A stretch of DNA of 64,000 nucleotides from Verrucomicrobiia bacterium (GTDB lineage Bacteria; Verrucomicrobiota; Verrucomicrobiia; Palsa-1439): positions 9,701-73,700 of the forward strand of contig DATJWQ010000046.1 in assembly GCA_035501175.1 (NCBI GenBank), read 5' to 3'. The first letter of the stretch is position 1, and every line of letters starts with the position of its first letter. The position numbers and the translations under genes are program-made. Shown here in pieces: positions 19,156 through 59,778 of this stretch. A model generated the notes under the pieces. That model ran no database searches. It saw only the letters and a program-made list of their open reading frames with translations, and was not told where the DNA came from.

Positions 19156-19175
19156 GCGATGCCCGCGACAACAAA

Positions 19176-43241: not shown

Positions 43242-43904
43242 GGTAACTCCTTTGTTTTGTCCGAATGTTCTCCGGCGGTCCTGCTTGGAGGAGTCGAGTG
43301 CAGTCCTTCTCCCGGACTGAATCCAGAAAGCCATCGCCAGTGATCACGCTCCTACGCCCATGGCTGTCAGATTACAAGCGAAATCCCGCGGAAGCATCCC
43401 GGCGAAATGCATTGGCCTTGATCTGCACGGACAATCGGGATCACCTCGATGCCAACTCCGCCTGGCCCTCGGCAGCCCTCGCCCTGTATCACGGCCCGAC
43501 GAGGGCAAGGCGTGAAATCCGGAACGGACACGCTGGCATTGGCTCCTTACTGAAGGATATGGCGGAGGTGGGGGTCTGGCGGACTCGCGGCGAGACTGTG
43601 GCTGTAGCCGGAGAGCGGAGGCATCAGGTCGCGGCGTTGCGGAAGGCGTGGGCGAGGATGCCGGCGTTGGAGGGGTGTGCACACACGTACACGATTACCA
43701 GGAGAGGGGTACTCGGCGTGCTGATGGGGCTGGTCCTGACATGCGCGGCGGACGAGGGATCGAGGTACGAATGCCATCATATTTGTGCTTGTTACTTCCG
43801 TAGCGAAGCCATACTGTGGTCAAGGAAAAGTTTGTAACGAAACCGATGGGATTGCTGGCCCGACGCTGTTGATGGTTGGGCCAAAATTGTGATTGGAGGC
43901 CGAA

Positions 43905-44477
43905 ATGTGTCACACCCGTTTGGGTTGTGTTCTCCTTGTGTCGGCGACACTCGTGTCGCTTGCGGTTGTATTGCCGAGCATTCATGCGGCAGCAGCGCCG
44001 CCAAAAGTCACTGACGTTGCTGGAGGTCAGAGTGGCATTTCTGGGAGTCAAACCAATAGTCCGACGCCGGAGGCTTCTGGCGCAGCCCTAACTACCATCC
44101 CGGCCGAGCAGGCCAAACAGCACGTTGGGGAGACCAACACGGTTTGCGGACTGATTGCCAGCGCGCGCTACATGGACTCGACAAGAGCCAAGCCGACGCT
44201 GCTGAATTTTGTCCACCCCTATCCGGACCATGTGTTTTCCGTCATGATCCCCAACTCGGCCAGGTCCAAGTTCAAGGATCCTCCCGAAACCGCGTTTATC
44301 AACAAGACGGTGTGCGTCACGGGGGCGATCATTGATTATCGAGGAAAGCCGGAAATTGTGGTGGACGACCCTTCGCAACTCGTGGTCAACGAATCGGCGC
44401 AGGTCAGTCCTGATACGACGGCCACCAACACAGTCCAGAAGACCCCGGCGCCGGGCAACGCTCCCGGACACCTGTAG
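43905..44477 (+). CDS. secreted hypothetical protein (domain shared with the 44714-45358 product)
   Basis: Signal peptide (LLVSATLVSLAVVLPSIHAAAA). A roughly 100-aa domain (QHVGETNTVCGLIASARY...KTVCVTGAIIDYRGKPEIVVDDPSQLVV) is paralogous to the neighbouring convergent gene. Confidence 0.5.
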   Translation: MCHTRLGCVLLVSATLVSLAVVLPSIHAAAAPPKVTDVAGGQSGISGSQTNSPTPEASGAALTTIPAEQAKQHVGETNTVCGLIASARYMDSTRAKPTLLNFVHPYPDHVFSVMIPNSARSKFKDPPETAFINKTVCVTGAIIDYRGKPEIVVDDPSQLVVNESAQVSPDTTATNTVQKTPAPGNAPGHL

Positions 44478-44713
44478 GATTGGAAGCCTTCATCCGCGCT
44501 GATTTCGCTGCGGAGTTTCGTTCTGCCCGGTCGCGCATTCTTGCCGGGCAGGGTGGCTTGGAGTTGTTCCCCGGCATGCAAGGCCGGACCAGATGATTGG
44601 GGCAAAGGCCGTATGCCTGCGCGAAGGGTGATACAGCCGACACTTGCGTGGTTCGTCGCTGCCGCGGCAGGGAAAGCAGGCGGAGGTTTACTTGCCGTGC
44701 TGGTGACAGCCGG

Positions 44714-45358
44714 CTAGTTGTTGGACGGAGGAGTTGGCGTATCTTCCACGACGATTTGCGCGGGGTCGCTGACCACGATCTGCGCCCGGCCGCGGCGGTC
44801 CGTCGTGATGAGGCCGGTGACACAAACCGATTTCCCCGCGAACGCGATTTCAGGAGCGACTTTGAAACGGGCCCGGCTCGCCTCGGCGATGACGACGGCG
44901 CAACTCTGGTGGGGGAACGGTCGGTCGAAGTTCAGGTACGTGGGATTTCCCGGTGAGCCGACCGCGTATTTTGCGCTGGCGACGGTTGCGCAGACGGTGT
45001 TGGTCTCCCCGACATGCTGGATCGCTTCGTCTCCGGTAAGCGTTTGGACGACCTTGATGCCGGCTGTGGCGAACAACGAACCGAGACCGCAGGCCGCGAC
45101 GATGGCCAGGAGGTAAAAGCAAACAGGATGACGACCCTTGGGCTCCCGACCTTTCATCGGAGTGTAGACTACCATGAGACCGGACCGGATACAACACATA
45201 GCTTGATCAAATAACCGAGCGGTTTGATGCGTTGGAGCAGACTTTTGCCCGGTAGCCACGACGATGATTCCTGCGGTTGCGGTGACGCGGCTGTTGGCGG
45301 TGAGCTTTGCGGAAGGCGCGGGCGAGGATGGCGGCGGTGGGGGAGATGAGCGTCGCAT
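44714..45358 (-). CDS. secreted hypothetical protein (paralog of the 43905-44477 product)
   Basis: Hydrophobic signal/anchor, then the shared domain (IQHVGETNTVCATVASAKY...KSVCVTGLITTDRRGRAQIVVSDPAQIVV). Confidence 0.5.
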   Translation of the reverse strand: MRRSSPPPPPSSPAPSAKLTANSRVTATAGIIVVATGQKSAPTHQTARLFDQAMCCIRSGLMVVYTPMKGREPKGRHPVCFYLLAIVAACGLGSLFATAGIKVVQTLTGDEAIQHVGETNTVCATVASAKYAVGSPGNPTYLNFDRPFPHQSCAVVIAEASRARFKVAPEIAFAGKSVCVTGLITTDRRGRAQIVVSDPAQIVVEDTPTPPSNN

Positions 45359-45441
45359 AAGCGAACGCGACTTTTGGGTGAGGTGGATTTGCCGTGAATA
45401 CAGGTCTGACGTCGGCTACCGAGGGGGAGGAGAAGTTGGGG

Positions 45442-47040
45442 TCAAGGCGCTCTTTCCGGATGAGGATTGAGCTCGTTTAATGCCATGGCTACTTCGGCGG
45501 AGACTTCCGAATGGGTATCGGCAAGTTTCTGGAGAACGGGGACGATGAGATGGGCCTGAGACTTGAATTCTGCCAGTGAAATGATAGCGGTCTTGCGCAC
45601 CTGCTGGTCTTCGTCATTGATGGCGGCAATCAGGGCGTCAACGCTCGCCTTGTCTTCGGCGTGCACATGACCCAACGCCCAAGCCGCCAGATACCGTGTA
45701 TACGAGTCGCTGGTCTTGAGGAGGCGAATTAGAGCCGGGACAGCGGTTGTGACGGATGCACTACTTTTCATATTGGGGTTGAGGCTTGCCAACCCGATAA
45801 TGGCACCTCGCTGAATGGTCAAATTGGTGTTCGATAAAGCCGCGATGACCGGGGCATATTCACCGACTTGAACCAACTCGCTGGCGGCTCGGCCGGAGTC
45901 CTTTTCGTCATTGAGCTGTTCCGTCAGGCGCGCAATTTCCGGCTGGATGGACTCCGGCGGCCTCTGCAAACACTCGCGCACCAGCCTGGGAAACTCGCCG
46001 TCCTGGGAAGCCGCGTCGACGGTGATGGCAATGTCTGCGCCGGGCAAGAGTTCGTGATACACCTGCTCGATTGTGATTTTCTCTTTTGATCCCAACGGTT
46101 GCCACTCGCCGACGACGCCAGCCGGATAGTCGTGATGTTCCACCGGGTTTAACTCCCAGCGCGGGGTTTCAAAATGCGCCGAGATCCGGAGATAGATCTG
46201 ACCCTTCGAGCCGGGAACGGTGTTCTGCATGAAAGATGAGTCCACCGAGGTCTCCAACAAGTTGTCGGTAGCGGATCGGTTAACGGAAGCGCGAGGGATG
46301 CTGCCGGATGCGATGCCACTGTATCCTTTGACCTCCAGGACAATCTGCTTCTGGATGGCCGACACTCGGTCGGCGATTGCCTGTTTCAAATGCTCGTCAT
46401 ATATACGATAGTTACCTTTGTTCTTGGCCCACCAATCCCACCACCAGCGGACAAACTGCTCGTGTTTTTCCCCGGTCGAATACTGGTAAAAGTTCGCGTA
46501 GTCGCGCCCGGTGATTTGACACAGGATTTGGGCGGCTTGATCCCGGATGGTCGTTTTAGTGCCCGGATAATCGAGCATGATAATCAACGGCTCGATGACG
46601 CTGGGGTCGCTGATCTCGTGCCGATTGGCCAAGTCTCGCAAGAGATACATCCGCCCCTCATTCCACTGGCACAACCGGCGCAAGGCCGCTTCCGTCGGCG
46701 TATCGGCGGACGTTGGCTGGTAGAGCACTCGGTCGACGGTGTCGGCGGAGATGCAGTCGCCATTGGTGGTGCACAACGACAGCTCGCGGGCGGCCGCGAC
46801 GGCGATTCGATTACGGTACGCTGGCGACGGATCCTGAATTGTGTCGACCCAGTTCCCCGTCCATCTGCTTCCTCCCTTTTCGCCAGGAAACGGAGCATGC
46901 AGCAACGATTCCAAGCTTTGCTCGGTATTCGTTGCCGGGGATTTTGTAGCGGCAGCTTCCTCGGCATGGGCGGCAACGGAGTACCGCATCAACGCTCCAC
47001 CCCAAACGAGTGCGAGAGCGAGGAGGAGTTTAGATGTCAT
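45442..47040 (-). CDS. secreted HEAT-repeat (PBS-lyase-like) protein
   Basis: Signal peptide MTSKLLLALALVWGGALMRYSVAAHA. C-terminal HEAT-like repeats (YTRYLAAWALGHV..., QQVRKTAIISLAEF..., SAEVAMALNEL). Lower GC than the core genome. Confidence 0.7.
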   Translation of the reverse strand: MTSKLLLALALVWGGALMRYSVAAHAEEAAATKSPATNTEQSLESLLHAPFPGEKGGSRWTGNWVDTIQDPSPAYRNRIAVAAARELSLCTTNGDCISADTVDRVLYQPTSADTPTEAALRRLCQWNEGRMYLLRDLANRHEISDPSVIEPLIIMLDYPGTKTTIRDQAAQILCQITGRDYANFYQYSTGEKHEQFVRWWWDWWAKNKGNYRIYDEHLKQAIADRVSAIQKQIVLEVKGYSGIASGSIPRASVNRSATDNLLETSVDSSFMQNTVPGSKGQIYLRISAHFETPRWELNPVEHHDYPAGVVGEWQPLGSKEKITIEQVYHELLPGADIAITVDAASQDGEFPRLVRECLQRPPESIQPEIARLTEQLNDEKDSGRAASELVQVGEYAPVIAALSNTNLTIQRGAIIGLASLNPNMKSSASVTTAVPALIRLLKTSDSYTRYLAAWALGHVHAEDKASVDALIAAINDEDQQVRKTAIISLAEFKSQAHLIVPVLQKLADTHSEVSAEVAMALNELNPHPERAP

Positions 47041-47044
47041 TGTA

Positions 47045-47938
47045 TCAATCGATGATTCCCCAAGCCAAATAGGGATTGGAAATGTTGCGGATGGTGTCCG
47101 CGGGGCGTTCTTCGAGCACATTTTGTTTCGGGTCTGAAGGTTTAAAATCGACATCCACCCTGATGTACGGACAGCGGCGATGAACAGACGTTCGATGCTT
47201 TGCGGTCGAAAGGCCACCCTCCGTGGTAAAAACCTTAGAAAGCTCTGCGCGTGTCATTCCGGGCTTAATCTTCTGACACTCGGTGAGAATGTTGGAAATC
47301 TGCTTCGTGAGATATTCGTCAACGCCGTTGCCAGTGGATTTCCGCCCATTCGTTTCGTCGAGTGTCTTCTCTGCCTCCCAACTCACGAGCCTGTCGTGCT
47401 CATCAAACTGTAGTGTGACCTCGTTCAGCCATGACGGTGTTTGGGCGGCCGTCTCGTGCTGCGAGACCTGCACTCTCCCATCGTTGTTCGTCGTGGGCGG
47501 TAGCACGTCGAGGGTGACTTCGTCACTCCAATACGTCTTCCGGCTATCGATCGGCGTGAAGCCCATACGAAACGAGACTGTCTTTTGGGAAATCGGTCCC
47601 GAGACGAGCATCTCCAACTGGTTCGTATATACGCCACCGGGCGGGAATTCGACATTCCTCGCCACGTTTCTCGTACACTCTCCGACAATCCAGGAGACGT
47701 TTGTGTTGCTCGTCTTCCATTCGTCCTGCCAACGGCAACTCATCACGCGCACGGTTTGATTGGTTGCTGTCGGATTCTCAACGCGCAGTGTGACCGGGAA
47801 AACTTCTTTGATGCGAACCACGGTCCTGGAAGGTGTGACAACAACCCGAAGTGAGTCTGCGTCGGCGGCGCCTGCAGACAAAGCCGCCAATGCGCCACTC
47901 CAAACGAGCGCGAGGCAACAGATGATTTTGGGGTTCAC
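47045..47938 (-). CDS. secreted mosaic protein: family signal peptide, unique N-terminal domain, conserved roughly 90-aa C-terminal domain shared with the 50982-51890 product
   Basis: GTG start encoding VNPKIICCLALVWSGALAALSAGAADA. C-terminus ILTECQKIKPGMTRAELSKVFTTEGG...CPYIRVDVDF...NPYLAWGIID. About 85% nucleotide identity to 50982-51260. Confidence 0.6.
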   Translation of the reverse strand: MNPKIICCLALVWSGALAALSAGAADADSLRVVVTPSRTVVRIKEVFPVTLRVENPTATNQTVRVMSCRWQDEWKTSNTNVSWIVGECTRNVARNVEFPPGGVYTNQLEMLVSGPISQKTVSFRMGFTPIDSRKTYWSDEVTLDVLPPTTNNDGRVQVSQHETAAQTPSWLNEVTLQFDEHDRLVSWEAEKTLDETNGRKSTGNGVDEYLTKQISNILTECQKIKPGMTRAELSKVFTTEGGLSTAKHRTSVHRRCPYIRVDVDFKPSDPKQNVLEERPADTIRNISNPYLAWGIID

Positions 47939-47945
47939 AGCCGTC

Positions 47946-48494
47946 CTATTTCTTTCGCGACTCAAATGTTTTTTGCGACTCGCGTCCTTCCTGTGATTCG
48001 AGTTCCCTGATATACACCCCGTCTTCGATGTAGACAAACCGCAGCGTCTCGGTATCAAGAACAAAATCCGTCCACGCCATGCGTCCCCACGGCACTGCGA
48101 TGAATAACATCTTTTCGTTGAGCCAAGCGTGGCGAATCTCGTAACTCGCCTGATCAAGCAGCTCCACGCGGACACACCGATTCGTGTCGGCGGAATCAAA
48201 GATATAAAGCCGCGTATCCCAGGGCCCGGCGCGCCTGGTATCCGGCTTTTCTTCGACCAGCCACCGTGAATTAAATTCTGTGTTATCTTTCGGCAGGGAA
48301 GCCAATTCAGCCAGTTGTTCGCCCGTCAAGGGAATGCGCTTGATTTTGATTTTCTGCAAACTGGCCCCAGAAGGTGTGGAATACAACACGGCATCCTGTC
48401 GCGGTGATGGAACCGTCGTGCATCCGAGCAGACCGCCGCTCCAAACGAGCGCGAGGGCGAGGACTTTGAGAGTGTGGCGCGCAGTGCTTCGCAT
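47946..48494 (-). CDS. lipoprotein, hypothetical
   Basis: Signal with lipobox (LKVLALALVWSGGLLGCT). Lower GC (about 50%). Confidence 0.55.
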   Translation of the reverse strand: MRSTARHTLKVLALALVWSGGLLGCTTVPSPRQDAVLYSTPSGASLQKIKIKRIPLTGEQLAELASLPKDNTEFNSRWLVEEKPDTRRAGPWDTRLYIFDSADTNRCVRVELLDQASYEIRHAWLNEKMLFIAVPWGRMAWTDFVLDTETLRFVYIEDGVYIRELESQEGRESQKTFESRKK

Positions 48495-48500
48495 TGTGAG

Positions 48501-49265
48501 TTATGGCGTCTTTAGCGGCACGGCAAATGGCTTCCCCGTATTCAGATCCATCTCCTGCCCATCAACAACAGACCTGCTTACCTTCTTGGCGGTGAGATCC
48601 ATCCATATACTTCCCAGCTTCTGCGTCTTTGGATGCCGTATATCAAGCCGCAAGATGCCATCGGTTAGGTCTATCGCTTCGACCAGAGGCATTACCAATC
48701 CTCCGCCCGGAGCCGGGGCGTCCGAGAAATAAAATTGCGGAAGGGACTGCATTAATTGTATTCGATTAGCTGTTATGCGCTGATTGAACTCGTGACTCAG
48801 CTTCTCGGTGTTGATCTCTTTCTCAAACTGAGCAATGGCGGTGGTGCTGGAATTGGTGTCAGGCAACCCGAAGTAACTGCTCGACCAAACCAGAACGCCA
48901 GGGCCGACAGTGAACCCCTTCATTCCAGAGCGATCGGAAACGTAAAAGGAATGTTCTCCGTCAATGAACCACCATTTCTTGGTATGGGGATCGTCAACTT
49001 CCAGGATCGAAAACCTCTCCGGTATAAGACTTCCGGGGTCGGGCTTGGGTACGACTTGATAGACAGCCCGCCTTACCGTAGTTGTCTCAGTTTTGCATTT
49101 GGTTGCAGGCGGCCCGGAAGAACCGGGCACGATCAACTTGATAGTGCTATCGGCCCACGGCTCGATAAATTCAGTTTTCATGGGCGTTGCGTTGGAAACG
49201 CTATCTCCCATCGAATACACCAAGGTTGCCACCAAGAGAAAGAAGATCACAGCAGTGTATTTCAT
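48501..49265 (-). CDS. secreted hypothetical protein
   Basis: Signal peptide MKYTAVIFFLLVATLVYS. GC about 48%, the lowest in the window. Confidence 0.55.
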   Translation of the reverse strand: MKYTAVIFFLLVATLVYSMGDSVSNATPMKTEFIEPWADSTIKLIVPGSSGPPATKCKTETTTVRRAVYQVVPKPDPGSLIPERFSILEVDDPHTKKWWFIDGEHSFYVSDRSGMKGFTVGPGVLVWSSSYFGLPDTNSSTTAIAQFEKEINTEKLSHEFNQRITANRIQLMQSLPQFYFSDAPAPGGGLVMPLVEAIDLTDGILRLDIRHPKTQKLGSIWMDLTAKKVSRSVVDGQEMDLNTGKPFAVPLKTP

Positions 49266-49378
49266 TGTTTCAATTCGGTTCTGCCTTCATTGGACACCTG
49301 GTTTGGGCGTTCGTTCGCTTACGCGCGCCAAAGAAGCGGATTGCTTTGCCGTTCGCTCCGCTGCGTCATCAGACGGCG

Positions 49379-49993
49379 TCATGGCTTCTTGACCGCAATT
49401 TTGACCTTGGGCAGTTGAAGCGTTCCCTGCCAGACGTAGTAGTTGAGGGAACTGGGGTGGTTGGTCGGGGGGCGGAACGTGGCCGACAAGTAGTAGTCGT
49501 TGGTAGCGCCAGGCCGAATGTCCCACAAGTCATCGGGGCCTACCAGTATGCTTACCCCGTCGGGCTTCGTCGAGTCAGAGCACAAACCGGGATCGGCTTG
49601 CAACCGCAGGGTGGAATTGCACGGCAACGTCACCCAGTACGGATTCGTCGGCACGTAGGCGTCAATTGGAGGGGATTTGTACGGGATGGCTTTGTTGAGA
49701 CCATCGTGCATTTCAAAGTGCAGGCCGGCGGACATACGGAAACAAATCTCGATCGGGTTGCGCCAGACATCGGTGCAGATGTGTTGCAACTCCAGATAGA
49801 CTCGGGCGTGTCCCCACATTTTGGTTCTGCTGTAATACTCCGCATCGTAAATGAGCAGGCGTCCGCGAAGCGTGTACCCGGCGGGATCACTGACGGGTTC
49901 CGACCAATCGCCGACGGCAATGAGGTTTGTGTCGGTCTGGGCGAAGGCGCAGGGAGGGCCGGCGAGCAACAGGAATAAGACGACGGACTTCAT
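49379..49993 (-). CDS. secreted hypothetical protein homologous to the N-terminal domain of the 50982-51890 product
   Basis: Signal MKSVVLFLLLAGPPCAFAQ. Shared blocks NLIAVGDWSEPVSD, GYTLRGRLL, VYLELQ, TLPCNSTLRLQ and WQGTLQLPKVKI. Confidence 0.6.
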   Translation of the reverse strand: MKSVVLFLLLAGPPCAFAQTDTNLIAVGDWSEPVSDPAGYTLRGRLLIYDAEYYSRTKMWGHARVYLELQHICTDVWRNPIEICFRMSAGLHFEMHDGLNKAIPYKSPPIDAYVPTNPYWVTLPCNSTLRLQADPGLCSDSTKPDGVSILVGPDDLWDIRPGATNDYYLSATFRPPTNHPSSLNYYVWQGTLQLPKVKIAVKKP

Positions 49994-50216
49994 AATGTGC
50001 GAACGCCATTAGACCTCTGATGAAACACCAAGAAAAGCACAAAGGCCAGCCTCCACGTTGAGTAATTTGCGAGCCTCGCGGCTTGAGGTGCGGAGAACTG
50101 CCGCGCTTGGCAACCGCGGCTACAGTTCCCGCTTGATGATGCGGCTATCTCCCGCCCGCAGCCCGCTCTTGCCCTCTGAAACCCGCCCCTGCCACTCAAG
50201 TCCACCCCTGTACCGT

Positions 50217-50801
50217 CTAGTCTGATATAATGAAGTCTGCAAAATTGGACTGCAAAGTGCCAACCCAAGTGTTCCACCCCACCCAAACAAACCCGCTGTT
50301 ATTGTGGTGTTGGTGGGTTTCCGAGAGTTGAGCAGCGATACGGTAGGCCCCTTTCTCTAGTTTCATCGTCCATTCCTTTGTTTGCGGACACCAATACTGG
50401 CTAAGCCTGACCCTCAAAACATGAACTGCACCCGCTTGAAGTCCAACTGCATAGTCATCAATCCGCCCTGAGACACTAGCCGGGCCGGTTGGCTCAAGTT
50501 CTCTGCGATGTCCTTGAGCATCCAGGAGAACAAGATGAATGGCTGTAGGAAAGAGACTACGTCCGTTTCCGAGGGTCATACCGAGATTCAAGAATACGTC
50601 GTTCGTGCCGACATTCCGCACCGCAATGTCAAACTCAGGGTCTTGCCCTGTTTTAAGTTGGGTATACACGGGAGAAATTGCGATTTGTAATCCATTGCTG
50701 GCGGTTCCCCAAAACTCAGGTGCGTCGTTGACCAATGAGGTTGCATAGGAGCATGGAACGGAAACGATCAGCAGCACGGCAAGGCTCAGAGTCTTAATCA
50801 T
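50217..50801 (-). CDS. secreted hypothetical protein
   Basis: GGAGG ribosome-binding site; signal peptide MIKTLSLAVLLIVSVPCSYA. Confidence 0.55.
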   Translation of the reverse strand: MIKTLSLAVLLIVSVPCSYATSLVNDAPEFWGTASNGLQIAISPVYTQLKTGQDPEFDIAVRNVGTNDVFLNLGMTLGNGRSLFPTAIHLVLLDAQGHRRELEPTGPASVSGRIDDYAVGLQAGAVHVLRVRLSQYWCPQTKEWTMKLEKGAYRIAAQLSETHQHHNNSGFVWVGWNTWVGTLQSNFADFIISD

Positions 50802-50828
50802 TGTTGCCTCCTTCTGTCCGTCGATTCA

Positions 50829-50978
50829 TCAATCCGTTCTTGCCGTCACGGACAAATAACTCTGTGCTGCGTTCGTCGAGACCGGTGCATTGGTTTCGTC
50901 AGCGCGGGCAACACGGGCACAGCCAGACAAGCCGACGCCCCAAACCAGCGTGAGGGTGAGGAGGAGTTTAAATGTCAT
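50829..50978 (-). pseudogene. 49-codon ORF encoding only a family-type lipoprotein signal peptide (MTFKLLLTLTLVWGVGLSGCA...); probable gene remnant or micro-lipoprotein
   Basis: Begins with the same conserved cassette (atgacatttaaactcctcctc...) found at the starts of the 45442-47040 and 56657-57964 genes, then stops after 49 codons. Confidence 0.35.
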
Positions 50979-50981
50979 TGT

Positions 50982-51890
50982 TCAATCGATGATGCTCCAA
51001 GCCAAATACGGATTGGAAATCTTGGTGATGGTGTCTGTGGGGCGCTCTTCTAGGACATTCTGTTTCGGGTCTGAAGGTGTAAAATCGACATCCACCTTGA
51101 TGTACGGACAGCGGCGATGAACAAACGTTCGATGAGCCGCGGTTGACATGCCGCCTTCGGTTGTGAAGACCTTCATCAGGTCGGCGCGGGTCATGCCGGG
51201 CTTGATCGTCTGGCATTCCGTGATAACGTCCAGAATCTGGTCCATCAGGCCCTTGTCGATTTCAGATTTCCGGGTCGTGGCAGGCGGGACCTTGACTCTC
51301 GGCAGCACCAACGTCCCGTGCCAGACGTGTCCGCGTGCAAGTTCCTTTCGCATCGCCTCGATGTCGGTAGAGTTGGACTTGGGCACGGTGAACGTCCCGG
51401 AGAGGAAGCGGTCGCCAGGAGCGCTGGGTGGAAGGAACCAGAACGCTGCAGGGAGCTGAATCGCCCAACCGGGGCCTTTGGGGATTCCCCAGCCATTGAC
51501 GGAAACGCGGAAGCGCAGCGTGGAATCGCAAGGAAGAGTCAGTGTGGTGATCGCGTCAGGCAGTGGACCGATAATGTCCGCCTCTGTGGGCGTTGGTGGC
51601 GGTGTCTTCCCCGCAGCATCGACAACCTCGCAATCCAGCGCCCGCTCGCTGTAGTCCACAAGTACCGAGGCGAGGATGCGGGATAGGTTCTGCAACTCGA
51701 GGTACACGACAGCCGTACGGGTGCCATTGTATGGCGCGTCTTCGGCAAGGATGAGTCTTCCGCGAAGCGTGTAGCCATTATCGCTCACGGGCGCCGACCA
51801 CTCGCCGACGGCGACGAGGTTGGTATGGGTTTGTCCGAGGGCACCTGAAGAGCTGGCGAGCAGCAGGAACAAGACGATGGACTTCATCAT
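50982..51890 (-). CDS. secreted mosaic protein: N-terminal domain shared with the 49379-49993 product plus conserved C-terminal domain shared with the 47045-47938 product
   Basis: Signal MMKSIVLFLLLASSSGALGQ. C-terminus ITECQTIKPGMTRADLMKVFTTEGG...CPYIKVDVDF...NPYLAWSIID. Confidence 0.65.
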   Translation of the reverse strand: MMKSIVLFLLLASSSGALGQTHTNLVAVGEWSAPVSDNGYTLRGRLILAEDAPYNGTRTAVVYLELQNLSRILASVLVDYSERALDCEVVDAAGKTPPPTPTEADIIGPLPDAITTLTLPCDSTLRFRVSVNGWGIPKGPGWAIQLPAAFWFLPPSAPGDRFLSGTFTVPKSNSTDIEAMRKELARGHVWHGTLVLPRVKVPPATTRKSEIDKGLMDQILDVITECQTIKPGMTRADLMKVFTTEGGMSTAAHRTFVHRRCPYIKVDVDFTPSDPKQNVLEERPTDTITKISNPYLAWSIID

Positions 51891-52158
51891 GGGCGATTAC
51901 CCTTCATACCAGTCGAGCGTGCGAATGCCATTAGACCGCTGATGAGACGGCGAGGAAAGCACAAACGGCGGCCATTGTTGCCGGGCGCGCGCGGAAGGCG
52001 CGGGCGAGGAGAGGGGCGGTCGGCATGAAGTACGGAGCTGGGTCCTCTTACTGACTGACGATAAGAGCGCAGCCGGAGATTGTTCACCGAGTCGTGAACG
52101 CGGCTTTATTGTCTGAGTGCCGTTTCGTCCTCTCGGCTGCGCTCCCGATCCTGAATCG

Positions 52159-54030
52159 TCAGGGCGTGACCTGCATCCGATAGAATCGTTGGGGTCCCAA
52201 GGCCCCGCCGGAGTTGGTCAGGATGATCAACCCACCGGGGCTATTGCTCAGGACGACGCCCGAGACGTTTGCCCAACTGCCCGTCGTCATTGAACTCCGG
52301 GTTTGCAATTGGTAATCGTCCCCCGCAACGGCCTGGGCGGAGACGGCGACGCCATTCGGGATCGCCGCAATCCCGCAGATCTGATTTGTCGTCCCGCGGG
52401 TCGGCGCGAAGTTGGCTGTCAGGATCTCGCTGTTCGTCGCGGTGAACGTATAACACGGCAAAGTGCTGACCACGTTGCTATTCGGATCAGTCCAGCTCAC
52501 GAAGTTGTAACAATCGTCCGGGATCGCGAAGATCTGTACGGGGAAGCAGCAACGGATGGTGCCGCCGCCAGTGGTCCAGCCGCCATTCGGTTGCGCGGAA
52601 GCGGTACCGGTCGTATACGTACACGCAATCAGGCAGGTGAGCGTTGCTCCATAGCTGCCCGTCCCTGAATAGTTGCCGGAATGCACCAAGAGCGTGTAGA
52701 CACCGGAGACACTGAATGTGACGTTACTGGCTGTACCCGGACCGATGCTGAACAATTTGTTGCCGGTTGGGTCGTACAGGTCGAACTCCGAACCGCTGAA
52801 GCCGCTGGTGCTGATTATCACCACGTCGTTGCTGCAGCCGTCGATTTGATAGGCATCCATCTCCGCTCTGTTCGTGGTGGCGCCACTGACAGTTTGTCCG
52901 CAAACGATCGGTTGACCATCGCACCCGCCGCCAATGATCGACTGAATGCTCAACTGATAGTTGCCGGTGCCATTGTAGGAGGCAGCATGCACGAGGATTG
53001 TGTACGTACCGCTGTTGGTCAGGGTCATGTTGATGGCGGTGCCGGCGTTGCAGTTGGGTGAAGCTACGGTGGCGAGGTATTGCCCGCTAGGACTATAGAT
53101 GTCCGCGTTCATCGATTGGTAAGGTGAAAGGCAATCGAGCGGCCCGTACAAGGCGAACGACAGGTCCTGCCCGGCTGCGCCAACGTAGCTGTAGGCGTTG
53201 ATCTCACTGTTAAAAACCGTGTTGCTCGCAATTGGCTGGCCACAGGTAATGGGTGTGCCGTTACACCCACCCTCGATAGCTGATTGGATACTCAACTGAT
53301 AGTTGCCGGTGCCATTGTAGGAGGCAGCATGCACGAGGATTGTGTACGTACCGCTGTTGGTCAGGGTCATGTTGATGGCGGTGCCGGCGTGGCAGTTGGG
53401 TGAAGCTACGGTGGCGAGGTATTGCCCGCTAGGACTATAGATGTCCGCGTTCATCGATTGGTAAGGTGAAAGGCAATCGAGCGGCCCGTACAAGGCAAAC
53501 GACAGGTCCTGCCCGGCTGCGCCAACGTAGCTGTAGGCGTTGATCTCACTGTTAAAAACCGTGTTGCTCGCGATTGACTGGCCGCAAACAATGGGTGTGC
53601 CATTACACCCGCCGTCGATGGCTGACTGGATACTCAACTGATAATTGCCGGTGCCATTGTAGGATGTGCAATGCACAAGAATTATGTAGCTGCCGGTATT
53701 CGTTAGGGTCATGGTGAGAGCAGCACCGGTGTTGCAGTTACCCGATGTAAGGGCGGCCAGATGCTGTCCGCTAGGGCTATAGATGTCCGCGGTCATTGAT
53801 TGGTAAGGTGAAAGGCAATCGAGTGGTCCGTACAATGCGAACACCAATTCCTGCCCCGCGGTGCCGGCGTAGGTGTACTGGTCGACTTCGCTGTTGGCAA
53901 CGGTGTTGCTTGCGATTGGTTGTCCGCAGGTGATGGGGGTTTGGGCGCGGACGGCCCTCGCCCAGAAGGCCAGCCCGAACACCAGCAGGACGTAGAAATT
54001 GAACGCGCGGTTTGTCGAAGATGTTTTCAT
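52159..54030 (-). CDS. secreted protein with four tandem PPC-like (pre-peptidase C-terminal-like) domains and a C-terminal tail
   Basis: GGGAGA ribosome-binding site. Signal MKTSSTNRAFNFYVLLVFGLAFWARAVRA. About 110-aa units, three nearly identical (ITCGQPIASNTVFNSEINAYSYVGAAGQDLSFALYGPLDC...DIYSPSG...GTYTILVHAASYNGTGNYQLSIQS). Confidence 0.65.
   Translation of the reverse strand: MKTSSTNRAFNFYVLLVFGLAFWARAVRAQTPITCGQPIASNTVANSEVDQYTYAGTAGQELVFALYGPLDCLSPYQSMTADIYSPSGQHLAALTSGNCNTGAALTMTLTNTGSYIILVHCTSYNGTGNYQLSIQSAIDGGCNGTPIVCGQSIASNTVFNSEINAYSYVGAAGQDLSFALYGPLDCLSPYQSMNADIYSPSGQYLATVASPNCHAGTAINMTLTNSGTYTILVHAASYNGTGNYQLSIQSAIEGGCNGTPITCGQPIASNTVFNSEINAYSYVGAAGQDLSFALYGPLDCLSPYQSMNADIYSPSGQYLATVASPNCNAGTAINMTLTNSGTYTILVHAASYNGTGNYQLSIQSIIGGGCDGQPIVCGQTVSGATTNRAEMDAYQIDGCSNDVVIISTSGFSGSEFDLYDPTGNKLFSIGPGTASNVTFSVSGVYTLLVHSGNYSGTGSYGATLTCLIACTYTTGTASAQPNGGWTTGGGTIRCCFPVQIFAIPDDCYNFVSWTDPNSNVVSTLPCYTFTATNSEILTANFAPTRGTTNQICGIAAIPNGVAVSAQAVAGDDYQLQTRSSMTTGSWANVSGVVLSNSPGGLIILTNSGGALGPQRFYRMQVTP
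52870..53530. repeat. near-identical roughly 330-bp tandem repeats (two full copies) inside the PPC-domain gene; a third more diverged copy follows to about 53850
   Basis: 52890-53220 and 53221-53550 differ by only a few bases (for example gtgccggcgttgcag versus gtgccggcgtggcag). Confidence 0.8.
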
Positions 54031-54588
54031 GATCCGTTTCTCCCTACGATGATTTTGTCGGTTCACACTTGTCGTACGTTGTCGCTGCGCCGGGCGAATT
54101 CTGTTCGCACGGGAAATTCAGATCTCCTTTTCCGGAACGCAGAATGACGGACAGGCAGGGTGAAACAGTGGGATGAAGACACAGGAATTCCTCGCCCTCA
54201 TGGTTTCTCGCCTTCCTTATCCTCGCCTCGGTGCAGACGCTCCCAGGCCGGTGCTTTCCTGACTCGGCCTGGCGACACAACTCGCCATTGGTTATGTATT
54301 GCTCCTAGCCTGGCGCAGACAGGGCACCGGGTCGGGCCGTAGAAAACAGGCCCTCAAACGGGGTGACGTGGCTTATACGCGTATGGAGGTCATAATTGCA
54401 AGACATTTTGGATGACGGTTTCGTGATAACTGGCTGGGCGTGCCGAAGAAGAGAAGGACATGAAGACGCCACGGCGGAGACGCTTCGGTCGGAGGAAGTG
54501 CGCGGTCGGGAGACCGGTGCACAACGAGCGGCACGGCTCGGAGAGCCGCGCCAGAGGCGGGCAAGCCGTGGCTACACCGGCGACGCGC

Positions 54589-56082
54589 TTATCGTCGGCA
54601 GGTTTCGCGGAAGGCGCGGGCGAGGATGGCGGCGTTGGTGGCGATGAGGAAGTTGTGTTCGGTCCAGGCGCGGCCCGAGTTGCTGAGGCGTTGACGGAGA
54701 GCCGGATCGGCGGCGAGGCGTTGGACGGCGGTGGTGAGGTGGGCGGGGTTGGATGGGTCGGCGATGATACCCGTGACGTCGTGGGTGACGGCTTCCATCG
54801 GGCCGGCGGTGGGGCTGGAGATCACGGGCAGGCAACGGGCGAAGGCTTCCGGGATGACGTTCGGGATGCCGTCGCGGTCGCCTTCGGGATCGACGATGCC
54901 GGTGTGCCAGAAGATGTCGGCCCAGAGATATTGATCGTTGACCTGATCGGGCGGGAGCGGGCCGGTGAGCGTGACGAAGTCGTGAAGGCCGGTGCGGTCG
55001 ATTTGCTGTTGAAGTTCGCGGCGGAGCGGGCCGTCGCCGACGATTGTTGCTACAAACGGCACGCCACGGGATTTCAAGAGCGAGCAGGCGGCGAGTTGGT
55101 GGACGTGACCCTTCTTCGGGACGAGACGGCCGACGGAGAGGAGTCGGATCGGGCGTGAGGTCGAGGTGGTGGCGTCGCGTTTCGGGAGAGGCGGAAGTTT
55201 TTCCAGGCCGCGGCGGGCAAGGACGATTTTCACGGGCGCGCCGTGGGCGCGGTCGCGGAGGTATTGCGCGGCGGCGTTGGTGGTGGTGTGGACGAAGGCA
55301 GCGGCGCGCAATTTGGGTTCCAAGAACGCGTCGCCGCCATGACGATAGATGTCGTAGGCGTGACCGCCGAAGCTGAACGGGACGTTGCAGAGTCGGGCGA
55401 GGATGGCGGCGGCGGTGGCGGGCGCGGTGGCCCAGACGCCGTGGATGATGTCGGGTTTGTGTTGGCGGAAGCGGCGGGCGCGGCAGATGGCGAAGACCAC
55501 GGCCCAGATGGTTGACCAGAAATTCTCGGGGTTGGTGGGTCGGTAGCGGCGGAAGAGATGCCAGCCGTCGCGGAGGAGGGCGGGGTCGCGGAGGAGTTCG
55601 CGGGGCAGGGCGATGAGGACGGCGATGGATTCCCACCAGCGGAACGTGTCGACGGGGATGTCGGCGATTAGTGATGAAGAACCCGCCTTCGCCACACGAC
55701 TGGCTACGGCGGGCAAGCCCTCACCCTGACCCGCCTTCGCCACACGACTGGCTACGGCGGGCAAGCCCTCTCCCTTATCCGGCAAGGGCGAGGGGACTCT
55801 CGTCTGTGGCGTCGTTTGGTGAGTGGGAGATTTGCGCTTTGAATTTTGACCAGGGAGAAGCTGTGCCAGGTCGGCGGGGCGCGGGGGGAAGAGCGAGTGG
55901 ATTTCGATGCGGATGCCGTGGTCGCGGAGGCCGGCGAGTTCGCGGCGGAAGAAAGTCTGGGAGAGCACGGGGTAGCGCTCGAAGATGTAGGCGACGGTGA
56001 GGCCACCGACATCCAATGTCGGGGTGAATACGGGGGGGTTAGTTTTCAATCGTGGAGCGTATTCAGCGGGTGCGTCAGTCAT
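54589..56082 (-). CDS. glycosyltransferase family 4 with a low-complexity N-terminal insert containing a 15-aa duplication
   Basis: GT4 C-terminal motif (EAFARCLPVISSPTAGPMEAV). The insert GEGLPAVASRVAKAG occurs twice, encoded by a 45-bp tandem duplication around 55690-55790. Confidence 0.7.
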   Translation of the reverse strand: MTDAPAEYAPRLKTNPPVFTPTLDVGGLTVAYIFERYPVLSQTFFRRELAGLRDHGIRIEIHSLFPPRPADLAQLLPGQNSKRKSPTHQTTPQTRVPSPLPDKGEGLPAVASRVAKAGQGEGLPAVASRVAKAGSSSLIADIPVDTFRWWESIAVLIALPRELLRDPALLRDGWHLFRRYRPTNPENFWSTIWAVVFAICRARRFRQHKPDIIHGVWATAPATAAAILARLCNVPFSFGGHAYDIYRHGGDAFLEPKLRAAAFVHTTTNAAAQYLRDRAHGAPVKIVLARRGLEKLPPLPKRDATTSTSRPIRLLSVGRLVPKKGHVHQLAACSLLKSRGVPFVATIVGDGPLRRELQQQIDRTGLHDFVTLTGPLPPDQVNDQYLWADIFWHTGIVDPEGDRDGIPNVIPEAFARCLPVISSPTAGPMEAVTHDVTGIIADPSNPAHLTTAVQRLAADPALRQRLSNSGRAWTEHNFLIATNAAILARAFRETCRR

Positions 56083-56656
56083 TCCGTGCGGAGGATAGTA
56101 TGTTTGCGGGGGTTATTTCAATGGTGGCGGGAGACGATGGGTGAGAATCGGCAGACTCGTCCTCAGATTGGAGTGATGGAGTGAGGGGGTACTGGAGTTT
56201 TGGACGCGGATCCTCCCTCAATTCGGATGCTTTCGGCTCCACGCAGCCCCGAACTCCGAACGAGTTCGCGAGTCCTGCGGAGGAATTCGGGGTAAAAGTT
56301 CGCAGAGGGCGCAGAGAACACCCGGACTGATCTTTGCCCGATTCGGTAAGGGGCCAAATCAGGCAAACGGCACCCGGGGGCGGTGGCGGAGTGGGGCGCG
56401 GCGGGCAACGCCTTTGCAGAAAGGAGGGACCCCGACCTCGACCGTTCCGCAGCCCCGACGTACACAGGCCATCCGCGTTGTGTCAATACTAAGGACTGAC
56501 CCCTTTATGACCCCTTTACTAAGGACTGACCCCTTTACGGGGACGGTTGCGTAAAACGTTGACCCCCCTTGACCGCCGAATTCAACGGGAATCGTCGTTT
56601 GCTCCTCCGCCCGTTGTAGGGGCGCTTCTGCGAAGCGCGCGCGATTGGGCAAATCT

Positions 56657-57964
56657 TCATTCACTCGTAGCTATTCTCTTGAGTGCAGACCGCGCGGCAC
56701 GTCGCACATTCTCGTCGGGATCGACAAGAAGTTGCTTAAGATCTGGGACGGCTGCAATTGCGACCGCTCCTAAACGTCCCAATGCATCAGCGGCATGCAT
56801 TCGAACGATGTACTCCGGATCGTGCAGCAGGGCGACCAACCCGGGCGCGGCATCCTTTGCTCCCGGGCCGATCTTACCAACAGCAACCGCACCCCAGTCA
56901 CGAACGAGATTGCGATAACTCCGGCTTTGATCCTGGAGCGTTGAGGTTAGCAAAGGCACTGCTGATTCGGCGTGCGGTCCAATTGCACCAAGGCAATATA
57001 TAATCGCAAGGCGTCCCTGTAAGTTCTCTGTTTGATATAGCCGCATCAAGGCGGGAACGGCTTCTGCTGCATTTGCACCTCGGTCCGCTATTGCGCGGAC
57101 TGCGAGCACACGAATCTCCGCGTCTTTGTCCTTCATGAGATCGATGAATATGGAGACGCTCCTTGTGTCGTTGGGAAGTGACACGGATAATGCGTCCGCA
57201 GTCATATACCGCGCACGGTTATCCAGTGCCTCGTCGCGAAGCAAATTCAGTAGCGAGGGGATTGCCTCCTGAGCTGCGCGGCCCATCCGGCCAAGGGCGC
57301 CGAGGGCCGTAACACGCAGCTTGGTGTCCCGGAGGGCTTGCGCTAACTGTGGGGCTGCTTGCACGGCCGACGGCCCCACGGAATCCCAACACTCAATAAT
57401 CTTCAGTCGTGTCTGTTCATCGCTGGTTTGATAGAGTGTCATCAGCACAGGCATTGCTTCCACGGCCTTCTCATGAAACGTGCCCAAGGTAGTGATAGCC
57501 AGATCCCTCAGGTCCGGGTCGTGCTCTTTTAGGAGTTCGACATAGGCCGGAAGCGCGTCCGGATCACGAGGATAGACTCTGTCCAAGGCGTATGCGGCCG
57601 ATAGGCGCACTTCCTTCGGCTGGCTCTTGTCTTGCACCATTTTAATCAACGCGGGCGCGGCCGCCTGCCCGGCCTCAGCGATCTTGCTAATGCCGTAGAG
57701 AGCTTGGTCAACATTGGTGCTTTGGGCAGTAATGATAGTCCCGGGAACAGCTTGGCCTGCTTCATTGGTTGAGAGGCTCGAAAGCGGCGGGCTGGCCGCA
57801 TGCTCGTCTTGAGTCACACCGAAGGAAGATTGGAGCCGAACGGCGAACAGCCATATCACGAGCACCACTAGATTAGGCACTGCATGCCTGTTTTTGTGTG
57901 CCCCAAAGCCAAGCATGCTGACGTTCCAAACGAGCGCAAGGGCGAGGAGGAGTTTGGGGTTCAT
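56657..57964 (-). CDS. secreted HEAT-repeat (PBS-lyase-like) protein
   Basis: Family signal peptide MNPKLLLALALVWNV... Multiple HEAT-like units (EVRLSAAYALDRV, RDLAITTLGTF, RVLAVRAIADRG, VRMHAADALGRLG, VRRAARSALKRI). Confidence 0.7.
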   Translation of the reverse strand: MNPKLLLALALVWNVSMLGFGAHKNRHAVPNLVVLVIWLFAVRLQSSFGVTQDEHAASPPLSSLSTNEAGQAVPGTIITAQSTNVDQALYGISKIAEAGQAAAPALIKMVQDKSQPKEVRLSAAYALDRVYPRDPDALPAYVELLKEHDPDLRDLAITTLGTFHEKAVEAMPVLMTLYQTSDEQTRLKIIECWDSVGPSAVQAAPQLAQALRDTKLRVTALGALGRMGRAAQEAIPSLLNLLRDEALDNRARYMTADALSVSLPNDTRSVSIFIDLMKDKDAEIRVLAVRAIADRGANAAEAVPALMRLYQTENLQGRLAIIYCLGAIGPHAESAVPLLTSTLQDQSRSYRNLVRDWGAVAVGKIGPGAKDAAPGLVALLHDPEYIVRMHAADALGRLGAVAIAAVPDLKQLLVDPDENVRRAARSALKRIATSE

Positions 57965-57997
57965 GGCTTTGTGGGGCATACAGCCGGCCTCTTGAAA

Positions 57998-58342
57998 TTA
58001 CAACAGGTGCGCGACGACGAATAGAAAGAGCAGAAACGTTAGAAGTAACAAGGGCACGGCGGCCACGGCGAACGTTTGAAGCGCGGGTTTCACGTCGCCC
58101 CGAATAGCTTGCAGCACGGCTCCGAGCACCAGGAACGGTGCGCACAACGCGTAGGCCGCTAGCAACACGTCTGTGGTGTGATCAATCCTGGAGGCATTTA
58201 CTCCCGTGAAATGAATGATAATCGGATCGCCGAGGAGAATACGAAAAACCAAGTAGAACGGGAAAACGCTGACGACATACAGTTTGAATGGAATCAGCAC
58301 CCAATTGGTCCATTTGGCTTTCGTGAATGGGGAGCGGCACAT
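57998..58342 (-). CDS. small membrane protein, hypothetical
   Basis: 114 aa with three predicted TM helices; preceded by the conserved leader motif. Confidence 0.45.
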   Translation of the reverse strand: MCRSPFTKAKWTNWVLIPFKLYVVSVFPFYLVFRILLGDPIIIHFTGVNASRIDHTTDVLLAAYALCAPFLVLGAVLQAIRGDVKPALQTFAVAAVPLLLLTFLLFLFVVAHLL

Positions 58343-58512
58343 GGTAGATCATGATTGTTGTAGTGCAGACGCCATTAGACTGCTGAAGGGGCGGCAAGGA
58401 AAGCAGAAAGAGGAGTAGTTGGCAGTTGGGAATCTATTTCGCCAGGCTGATCGCGGTGATACTATATGGATCGTGCGGTTCGGCGCCGACACAAAGCCAT
58501 GAGGAGTTGCTT

Positions 58513-58875
58513 ATGAAACGAGTCCTTGGATTGTTGGTCGTGATGACACTTGCATGTCAAACCCAGATCGCCCAGTCCGCGCTGGAGGGAGATCGTACCA
58601 TCCCACTCCCGAAGTATAGTCCTGCTCAAGCGATTGAAAAGGTGAGCAAGTATTATCGGGACGACAACGGCGATCCCGAGTGCTTCGTGATTTCCGTCCG
58701 TTACGGGCGACCCGACCTGATGGGGCCTTGTCTGGGCAGCAATTCGGTGCGCGGAGATTGGCAGGAGTGGTCATGGTTTGTCACATTCGCGCATCCTAGG
58801 AAACCCTACTCGGAGATCGTGTACCGTTTGCGGGACAACGGAGAGATCTACCCGCTCATTCAAGCGCGCACGTAA
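58513..58875 (+). CDS. small secreted hypothetical protein
   Basis: GAGGAG ribosome-binding site then MKRVLGLLVVMTLACQTQIAQS signal peptide. Confidence 0.45.
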   Translation: MKRVLGLLVVMTLACQTQIAQSALEGDRTIPLPKYSPAQAIEKVSKYYRDDNGDPECFVISVRYGRPDLMGPCLGSNSVRGDWQEWSWFVTFAHPRKPYSEIVYRLRDNGEIYPLIQART

Positions 58876-59033
58876 TAGCGGTTTGAAGTGGCTGAATTGT
58901 TGGGGGCGTGGTCGACAGGCTGGGGCGGAGCGGCCAGCGCATTTACAAATAGGAGAGAACGAAGATCGACCATTGCACGGGAACGACGTAGGCAAAGCGA
59001 GCGGCGTTGCGGCGATACTGAGGGCTGACCCGT

Positions 59034-59318
59034 TTATGGTGTGAAGCCCCAAATCATGAACCCCGCCGAGAATACCACTACCAATCCGAGTCCACCGGCG
59101 ACGTAATCGCGGCGCATTAGACTGACAACAGAAAGCGGCAGAACTGCGAGGAAGCAGGCCAACCCACCGTACAGGAGCCACGGCCCTATGTTGGGAAAAT
59201 GGTGCCCGACAAGCCGGTCGTAACCAAGAATTAGAAGTAAAAAGGGCGTCCAGAACATTCCTGCGCCGCAAATCGTAAGGGTCACCAGCAATCTCCGTAG
59301 TGTGCAAGGGGTTTTCAT
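59034..59318 (-). CDS. small membrane protein, hypothetical
   Basis: 94 aa with three hydrophobic helices. Confidence 0.4.
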   Translation of the reverse strand: MKTPCTLRRLLVTLTICGAGMFWTPFLLLILGYDRLVGHHFPNIGPWLLYGGLACFLAVLPLSVVSLMRRDYVAGGLGLVVVFSAGFMIWGFTP

Positions 59319-59778
59319 TCTGGCACCGTCGGGTAATTGCCCCCGGGCTGTTGGTTACTTGCCGTAACGGGCCGGCTTCTCGCGGGCGAGCAACGCGGGA
59401 GCATCGACGGTACCGCTTGCGACGCGCTTCCACCAGGCACCCAAGGCTCCTGAGCTTGCGCGTCGGCGGAAGTAATGTATTTGTTCGGCGACCGACATGC
59501 GCTCGGTATCGGCACGAATTTTCTCCTGGCCTGCCGTTTCAAGGCGACACAATTGATCGGTTGTTTACTTCGAGCCTTTTTCATCGCTGAGCACCTGTTT
59601 TGGCGTCACGATTGTAAGGATACCATAGCCTTGCTGGAGATTCACCTGATTATACGCCTTCATCTTGGCCAGACGGACGATGTGTTGAAAGTTCCAGGAG
59701 ACGATGGCGTCGGCGCGGGCGGGTCGCGAGCGGGGCCGTGGCTACACCGGCGCGGAGCGGCGCGGTTGGGCGATGAGA

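Follow-up and report, generated by a model that had tools for sequence, protein, structure and literature searches.

What kind of genomic region lies beside the cell-envelope glycan genes of this soil Verrucomicrobiae metagenome-assembled genome (MAG), and how have its genes come to share parts with one another? The region, positions 43893-59320 of a 64-kb stretch of contig DATJWQ010000046.1 (the whole stretch is called the window below; NCBI locus tags VMP11_09635-09705), had been described in a first-pass annotation as a lower-GC accessory island of mosaic secreted proteins shaped by recombination. Its open reading frames (ORFs), here lettered A to M by position, were all found at the coordinates given there, and all lie on the minus strand except A. 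NCBI annotates every island product as "hypothetical protein" or "HEAT repeat domain-containing protein". The exported character claimed for them agrees with inspection, each of the twelve island products beginning with a signal-peptide-like or lipobox sequence. By Pfam calls, the rest of the window is a cell-envelope glycan region, with GT9, several GT2 and GT4 glycosyltransferases, Wzm/Wzt, a dTDP-sugar isomerase and methyltransferases, together with a MacAB/OEP efflux set, regulators and genes for a cupin, an aldo-keto reductase, an SDR and a PEP-CTERM protein. Scans of the window for tRNAs and against Rfam gave no match. The analysis presented here indicates that the span is probably the part that varies most in a plasticity zone of the replacement type. 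Its exported proteins are built from portable modules, which would be exchanged between short sequence boxes.

A variable zone around a conserved glycosyltransferase gene

Several of the relatives were collected by a metagenome scan with a 22-nt core of the GT4 gene K. The 118 stretches retrieved were mostly chance GC-rich matches, and about 12 are true relatives; Limisphaerales and Pedosphaera are among the relatives of the window MAG. Contig L006 (about 75% nucleotide identity) keeps both flanks of the region, i.e., KS, SDR, a 422-aa protein, GT1_3 and GT4 on one side and aminotransferase, OEP, OEP, MFP and MacB on the other, with 6.1 kb between them as against 22.5 kb in the window (32.1-54.6 kb). 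Synteny with the window is broken in L006, L038, L114, L133 and L148. The GT4 and GT1_3 genes are adjacent in L006, L038 and L133, whereas the window has an extra 3.7-kb slot holding L and M and L114 a different insert of 4.2 kb at this place. The genes that follow GT4 differ in L038, L114, L116, L133, L125 and L079; the cargo after GT4 includes a homologue of J in L116, a 1,097-aa protein in L133, L125 and L077, and unrelated genes in L038 and L114.

Gene K (54589-56082, minus strand) passes the Pfam threshold as a GT4 glycosyltransferase, in agreement with the first-pass annotation (Glycos_transf_1, 102.3 bits, E=2.7e-29; Glyco_transf_4, 30.1 bits, likewise above threshold), and has orthologues with 67-75% amino acid identity in L006, L038, L114 and L133. 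Because the relatives keep GT4 but carry other cargo around it, K is a conserved core gene and not island cargo. Judged by synteny, the variable zone covers approximately 32.1-54.6 kb and 56.1-59.8 kb, wider than the span 43893-59320, and surrounds the conserved GT4 gene. Several relatives therefore bear out a variable region between conserved flanks, but the borders proposed for the island were too narrow and enclosed a core gene.

The base composition of the region is atypical. The GC content of the whole span is 0.576, compared with 0.600 outside it, and two blocks are lower, at 45.4-51.9 kb (0.555) and 56.7-59.3 kb (0.557), with a minimum of 0.50 in a 500-nt window. The reported drop from about 63% to about 48-57% is real but was overstated, the measured values being 60% and 50-58%. 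The GC content at third codon positions (GC3) is 0.70-0.84 in background genes and 0.51-0.64 in five island genes (H 0.51, L 0.59, F 0.59, E 0.62 and D 0.64), and this deviation coincides with a region that is missing from relatives. Elsewhere in the window, a second block of lower GC3 (0.63-0.67) is found at 16789-21043 inside the glycan cluster, with genes for a 788-aa protein, a GT2 and a methyltransferase; it looks like a typical variable glycan-synthesis segment. A 418-aa ORF at 38365-39621 (plus strand) without a Pfam family is located in a stretch with a GC content of 0.555, within the larger variable zone defined by L006.

Gene and domain content compared with relatives

A leader-peptide coding sequence (K-L-L-L-A-L-A-L-V-W) is shared by C, D, E and L and by an orphan ORF at 50829-50978, and the sharing of modules within the island reaches E=1e-31 to 1e-48 at the protein level. 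Contig L148 (80-95% nucleotide identity) allows the joints between these parts to be located. Its gene order, with primes denoting the counterparts of window genes, is I′ (N-terminal domain and C-terminal module), a 455-aa DUF2092 protein, E′, D′, C′, a GT4 relic and then unrelated genes. Gene E (47946-48494, minus strand) encodes a 182-aa lipoprotein of no known family with the lipobox LLGC and is 95% identical to E′ in nucleotide sequence; homology between the two contigs resumes inside its leader box, at about 48463. From 48464 to 50943 the window carries the tail of the orphan ORF and the genes H, G and F in place of the body of the DUF2092 gene. Both ends of this replacement are situated inside the leader box CTCCTCGCCCTCGCGCTCGTTTGG, homology being lost on the other side within the orphan ORF, at about 50944. 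The orphan ORF (minus strand, 49 codons), which contains a lipoprotein leader only, is the 5′ stump of the gene whose body was replaced. An interpretation of this ORF as a truncated copy of the 5′ end of C was dropped, a full DUF2092 gene being present at that position in L148.

The other differences from L148 are in-frame gains or losses of domains. Gene D (47045-47938, minus strand) encodes an exported 297-aa mosaic consisting of the leader, a β-rich domain (D-N) with a linker (47341-47892) and the C-terminal module (approximately 47045-47311). D′ is a 125-aa lipoprotein with the leader and the module only, and compared with it the window has an in-frame insert of 552 nt (47341-47892) which places D-N and the linker between the two. 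Gene C (45442-47040, minus strand; leader box at 46980-47039) encodes an exported 532-aa mosaic of an N-terminal part of no known family and a C-terminal HEAT-repeat module (Pfam HEAT_2, E=3.7e-17, 62.8 bits against a cut-off of 27.7). C′ has 360 residues and no HEAT repeats, and the segment 45421-45949, which contains the HEAT module, is missing in L148 and L074.

The same parts occur in other combinations elsewhere. In L141, D-N forms a gene by itself, whereas four further protein clusters (P0024, P0031, P0038 and P0067) have it directly in front of the C-terminal module, as a fusion; D-N has no detectable relation to the H or G families. Gene I (50982-51890, minus strand) encodes an exported 302-aa fusion of a G-type β-sandwich (residues 1-205) with the C-terminal module (residues 218-302), and its orthologues in L006 and L007 are without the module. 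The C-termini of D and I had been noted as shared; they have 77% amino acid identity, and the duplication within the window runs on from the module past the stop codon into the leader of the next gene, with 83% identity over 293 nt. The product of G, which had been equated with the N-terminal domain of I, is indeed related to it, but as a paralogue of 38% identity. An orthologue of H in L141 (83% nucleotide identity) adjoins a decayed tyrosine integrase gene in a mobile-element context that also includes primase-polymerase, WYL and REase genes, and L141 carries a homologue of D-N and a protein with the C-terminal domain of J nearby. Some of the cargo (H, D-N and the J-like C-terminal domain) is thus found elsewhere beside a decayed integrase. 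The integrase gene itself (L141, 8438-9728) seems truncated or frameshifted, with a partial match to the catalytic domain, and the element has an NrS-1-like primase-polymerase, WYL and REase-ARP.

The in-frame domain indels and the cassette replacement with respect to L148 support the claim that the island proteins are mosaics produced by recombination. These alignments show that gene and domain content changes by gain, loss and replacement of cassettes. The breakpoints are of three kinds: some lie within the leader box, some a short way upstream of the C-terminal module, and some where the final 40-140 nt of GT4 have been copied. Horizontally acquired DNA would be exchanged at these short conserved boxes through recombination that relies on homology or microhomology.

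Relics of the GT4 3′ end at the junctions

Two remnants of a glycosyltransferase 3′ end had been reported in the span. Both were confirmed and a third was found, all on the minus strand and all derived from the last 40-140 nt of K. Relic no. 1 (51991-52023, ~33-55 nt) lies directly upstream of the second copy of a conserved element described below. Relic no. 2 (45280-45350, repeat D10) comprises 71 nt, is 80% identical to the real GT4 end and has lost the stop codon. Relic no. 3 (43634-43673, ~40 nt, repeat families D3/D4) is intergenic, between the PEP-CTERM gene and A, and retains a 28-nt core with 2 mismatches. This 28-nt core has four matches in the window against none expected by chance. 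The relics separate J, the block from I to C and the B/A pair. Their positions recur in relatives: the relic after C′ in L148 has the position of relic no. 2 and is followed by unrelated genes, the order C, relic, B is kept in L074, and in L006 a relic at the place of relic no. 1, upstream of the I orthologue, follows a BrnT/BrnA cassette.

These direct repeats, delimiting three modules in the window, raise the possibility of serial site-specific integration. The 3′ end of GT4 would be an attachment site for small integrative elements, each insertion bringing its own copy of the GT4 end and displacing the old one, the relics would be the attachment scars, and the integrase would have been lost or would act in trans. 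In L006 a BrnT/BrnA toxin-antitoxin pair (9137-9830) is inserted exactly at the GT4 3′ end as a minimal cassette between two copies of that end (51 of 52 nt identical), a pattern which suggests insertion at an attachment site. The displaced copy is closer to the GT4 end of the window than the functional end of L006 itself is, and the integrase remnant beside the H orthologue in L141 fits the same scheme. On the other hand, gene calls and Pfam scans over approximately 0-62 kb of the window reveal no integrase or transposase gene, either at the island borders or elsewhere, and, as the first-pass annotation had stated, no recombinase, toxin or secretion-system gene. The GT4 core is absent from L141, and the relic in L079 is placed after a different gene. 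L125 (2120-2420, also L127) has a chimeric gene made up of GT1_3 and the final ~40 codons of GT4, fused at a 7-nt microhomology (CGCCTCG) with loss of the GT4 body; this plain deletion chimera points to illegitimate recombination. The relics also differ in length (33, 40, 71, about 75, 119 and 140 nt in the window and relatives) and form no hairpin. Serial integration at GT4 is accordingly considered possible but unlikely. An integron cassette array was rejected because the relics show no more folding than their shuffled counterparts (z from -0.2 to +1.1) and thus do not resemble attC sites; an integrase is absent as well. The relics are treated here as junction scars.

A conserved element of approximately 55 nt, TTTGTGCTTTCC...CATCAG.GGTCTAATGGC.TTCGCAC, precedes three genes of the region on the minus strand. 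Copy 1 (49997-50051, repeat D7) is located before G, and copies 2 (51919-51973) and 3 (58363-58417), both from the repeat family and alignment, before I and M, respectively. The element is also present upstream of the I orthologue in L006 (about 9940-9990). A scan for sigma-70 promoters and terminators showed no enrichment over shuffled sequences, and the element misfits sigma-70 spacing, so that it is not assignable as a promoter on this basis. It may be a shared promoter for an alternative sigma factor or a 5′ leader.

Several observations count against cassette exchange between short boxes in a plasticity zone. The proposed mechanism of exchange is based on three breakpoints from a single pairwise alignment and on where the relics lie, the other relatives being too short or too distant to replicate it. 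Relics ranging from 33 to 140 nt fit neither a clean site-specific crossover nor any one simple model. This population has just one other long assembly, an ENA contig, which differs from the window in repeat copy number only and therefore gives no within-population evidence of ongoing exchange. Finally, GC3 is normal in four of the twelve island genes (G, I, J and B, 0.70-0.74), and composition alone would therefore not define an island. Taken together with the synteny and the L148 comparison, the evolutionary picture, a replacement-type plasticity zone in a glycan cluster that carries modular exported proteins, is nevertheless well supported.

The shared C-terminal module

The module shared by D and I comprises approximately 85 residues and occupies the extreme C-terminus in 114 of 114 matches, with 55-80% identity behind unrelated N-terminal parts (LysM, F5/8 type C, ankyrin, LRR and several unnamed domains); the proteins in question often begin with the same lipoprotein leader. 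No Pfam-A or NCBIfam model matches it. An exhaustive search yields 1,242 representatives at 50% clustering, 511 of which have E<=1e-10. Its usual form is a standalone exported protein of ~120 residues: among 139 diverse representatives, 63% are at most 150 residues long (signal peptide and domain only), 92% have the domain at their C-terminal end, 91% have Asp as the last residue, 13 contain a lipobox and 8 are tandem. The family members P0121, P0122, P0123 and P0238 have two or three tandem copies of the module, as in tandem-repeat BLIP (β-lactamase inhibitory protein).

The conserved core of the module reads RT.V.R.CPYIKVDV.F ... PYL.W.I.D, with the terminal Asp; R30, E40, K60, D81 and S87 are among the conserved residues. 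An AlphaFold2 (AF2) model (pLDDT 85) shows two helices followed by four strands, the helices being packed on an antiparallel sheet. The family profile A4, restricted to the domain, matches both repeats of BLIP in the PDB at E=0.016-0.037, in the GMTR helix only; profile A1, which included N-terminal columns, gave only noise. Family member P0121 matches the BamE model PF04355 at E=0.004 (17.4 bits, below the cut-off of 23.2), and the window proteins have no BamE match in Pfam at E<=0.1. This evidence is weak but concordant, and a BamE/BLIP-like fold, offered as a speculation in the first-pass annotation, is tentatively assigned. Identity with BamE proper was rejected, given scores below the PF04355 threshold, multiple paralogues and fusions, members mostly without a lipobox, and no BAM genes beside the loci inspected; the module is not a BamE orthologue.

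At least 12 genome loci carry the module, in Verrucomicrobiota and Acidobacteriota MAGs and in two MAGs labelled Saccharimonadales and Baltobacteraceae. Among the matches listed at these loci no neighbourhood is conserved and neighbours are unrelated across phyla; close Acidobacterial relatives alone, among the same matches, share a selA/DUF488 context. In the Acidobacteriota MAGs L016, L018 and L019 a standalone module gene directly follows a gene of ~480-510 codons (SelA by Pfam in L016), and in L016 and L019 it is followed by a 176-aa gene (DUF488 by Pfam in L016). An exported HEAT protein gene adjoins module-bearing genes at two loci, in the window and in Pedosphaera parvula. The module represents a large exported-domain family without a Pfam-A or NCBIfam model in two dominant soil phyla, which recommends it for a family model of its own and for studies of the Verrucomicrobial envelope.

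Possible roles of the exported proteins

The products of the zone are probably Sec-exported and reside in the periplasm, as lipoproteins or at the surface; a small number of portable modules make them up, namely the leader-peptide box, Ig-like β-sandwiches (the G/H/I-N family and the D-N family), HEAT repeats and the BamE/BLIP-like domain of ~85 residues. BamE and BLIP both bind proteins, in the envelope or outside the cell. By analogy, the C-terminal module would be an autonomous protein-binding domain, periplasmic or associated with the outer membrane, to which variable binding domains have been joined at the N-terminal side in this lineage. Since the fusion partners here are binding-type folds as well, the favoured reading is that the island supplies envelope proteins for binding or inhibition, in a set that can change. 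This functional picture we infer from likeness.

In the first-pass annotation the layout of the locus was likened to immunity-gene or adhesin islands, a role that the searches given below do not support. In its immunity form, the locus would be an orphan immunity-gene array whose exported proteins would neutralise the periplasm-acting toxins or lytic enzymes of competitors. Acquired interbacterial defence clusters of the Bacteroidales are orphan immunity gene arrays, and the island shares with them unidirectional small accessory genes, shared upstream sequences and a link to a mobile element in a related locus. Unlike those clusters, the window has, by the scans described here, no recognisable immunity families, recombinase or cognate toxins. 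Searches of Pfam, NCBIfam and PADLOC with the island proteins matched no immunity, toxin, defence or adhesin family, except for generic HEAT matches of C, and no toxin genes were found beside homologues of the island proteins at the loci inspected. Two neighbourhoods of the G family that were inspected (an ECF sigma factor with a VWA protein, and a peptidase S9) provide no functional lead. An immunity array is distinctly unlikely.

Two further proposals concern the module itself. It could serve for recognition or docking in a hitherto undescribed envelope system of Verrucomicrobiota and Acidobacteriota, with the leader box and the module sequence serving as homology arms for in-frame swaps. 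Such a system could be a scaffold or a sorting route, possibly with the co-located exported HEAT proteins, and would amount to a natural cassette system for diversifying displayed envelope-protein domains; we regard it as improbable. Slighter still is the chance that the module is a plain sorting or docking tag, comparable to the C-terminal domain of the type IX secretion system (T9SS) or to dockerin, for an envelope machine or scaffold that might involve the exported HEAT proteins. The invariable C-terminal location with its conserved Asp, the 55-80% identity behind unrelated N-terminal parts and the HEAT genes adjoining module genes speak for a tag, but the HEAT adjacency rests on the two loci mentioned, no machinery is conserved in the neighbourhoods among the matches listed from at least 12 genomes, and the abundance of standalone and tandem forms is unexpected for a pure sorting tag; the module gives no match to the T9SS Por_Secre_tail model. 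That the span consists of ordinary lineage-specific genes, with chance fluctuations in composition and chance repeats, gains some colour from the modest GC dip, the similar dips at 16.8-21 kb and 38-40 kb and the uninformative product annotations, but is hardly credible and is refuted by the loss of synteny exactly in this region, the repeated GT4 core, the sharing of modules and the comparison with L148.

Other genes of the region

Searches of Pfam, NCBIfam and PADLOC assign no family to A, B, D, E, F, G, H, I or M. Gene A (43893-44477, plus strand; GC3 0.66) encodes an exported 194-aa protein and is an inverted paralogue of B (44714-45175, minus strand; 153-aa exported product, "hypothetical protein" VMP11_09645), with 48% identity over 104 residues (inverted repeat I1). 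Within the segment that replaces the DUF2092 gene body, F (48501-49265, minus strand; GC 0.51) encodes an exported 254-aa protein that is the sole member of its 90% cluster, and G (49379-49993, minus strand) an exported β-sandwich protein of 204 residues. Gene H (50217-50801, minus strand) has the lowest GC content of the island genes (0.50) and encodes an exported 194-aa protein of a family with only 17 proteins, distantly related to the G/I-N superfamily (hhalign with the G family: probability 80%, E=1.4e-5).

Gene J (52159-54030, minus strand) encodes an exported 623-aa repeat protein with 114-aa β-sandwich units (2.9 tandem copies of a 342-nt unit; TRF, period 342), an InlB B-repeat-like domain (Pfam Flg_new_2, E=1.3e-6) and a C-terminal domain of ~70 residues. 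Its repeats are as real as the first-pass annotation had it, but the PPC label does not hold, the match to PF04151 (15.6 bits, E=0.03) being below the cut-off of 25.9. A T9SS C-terminal sorting domain was likewise rejected (TIGR04183, 20.1 bits against a cut-off of 23, an internal match at residues 414-467). Unrelated secreted proteins of Verrucomicrobia also end in the C-terminal domain of J, which may be a lineage-specific sorting-type domain. Its consensus over ~60-70 residues, Y.LQ.RSSMT.G.W.NV...LTN.GGA..P.RFYR...P (52159-52370), is also met in L141 at 12260-12480 and 13980-14200. Compared with the ENA contig, J has three repeat units instead of two (623 against 509 residues; window 52898-53877), and a 48-nt (16-aa) stretch of the GT4 gene is duplicated in tandem instead of single (497 against 481 residues; window 55681-55775). 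These differences could be real length variation or assembly collapse.

The second variable slot, between GT4 and GT1_3, contains L (56657-57979, minus strand; leader box at 57904-57963), which encodes an exported all-HEAT protein of 440 residues (Pfam HEAT_2, E=2.9e-37, 127.3 bits against a cut-off of 27.7), and M (57998-58342, minus strand), which encodes a hydrophobic 114-aa protein of no known family. Both HEAT-repeat proteins recognised in the first-pass annotation, C and L, are thus above the Pfam threshold.

Comparison with known systems

The module resembles BamE (SmpA/OmlA, PF04355) and BLIP in being a small exported domain with helices packed on an antiparallel sheet, in its helix-turn motif I.pGMTR.e/q.l, which aligns to both BLIP repeats, and in occurring in lipoprotein or signal-peptide forms, some of them in tandem as in BLIP. 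It differs in that no member reaches the Pfam threshold for BamE and in having a conserved core of its own with the terminal Asp. It has, moreover, multiple paralogues per lineage, often fused behind other domains, in Verrucomicrobiota and Acidobacteriota, and nothing ties it to the BAM complex or to β-lactamase inhibition.

In Mycoplasma, families of the Vlp/Vsp type consist of surface lipoproteins with conserved leader regions and variable mature parts. A conserved signal-peptide coding sequence on unrelated mature proteins is also seen here, where it coincides with recombination breakpoints. In contrast to the Mycoplasma families, there is here no evidence of phase or antigenic variation, of an invertible promoter or of a site-specific recombinase, the host is free-living in soil, and the variation is found between lineages and not within a clone.

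The closest parallel to the locus as a whole is provided by the replacement-type flexible islands in O-antigen and exopolysaccharide clusters, and no new kind of system is revealed, the region being of a familiar variable kind. In both cases different gene sets occupy a fixed site between conserved flanks in a glycan region, with lower GC3 and without an integrase. The cargo differs, consisting here of exported binding-type proteins and not of glycosyltransferases or sugar-synthesis genes. The exchange described here also takes place within genes, at the level of domains, with junctions marked by short boxes and by relics of the GT4 3′ end. The locus thereby offers a clean case from nature in which domain cassettes are exchanged in frame, beside a glycan-cluster gene whose 3′ end has repeatedly been left as a junction scar.

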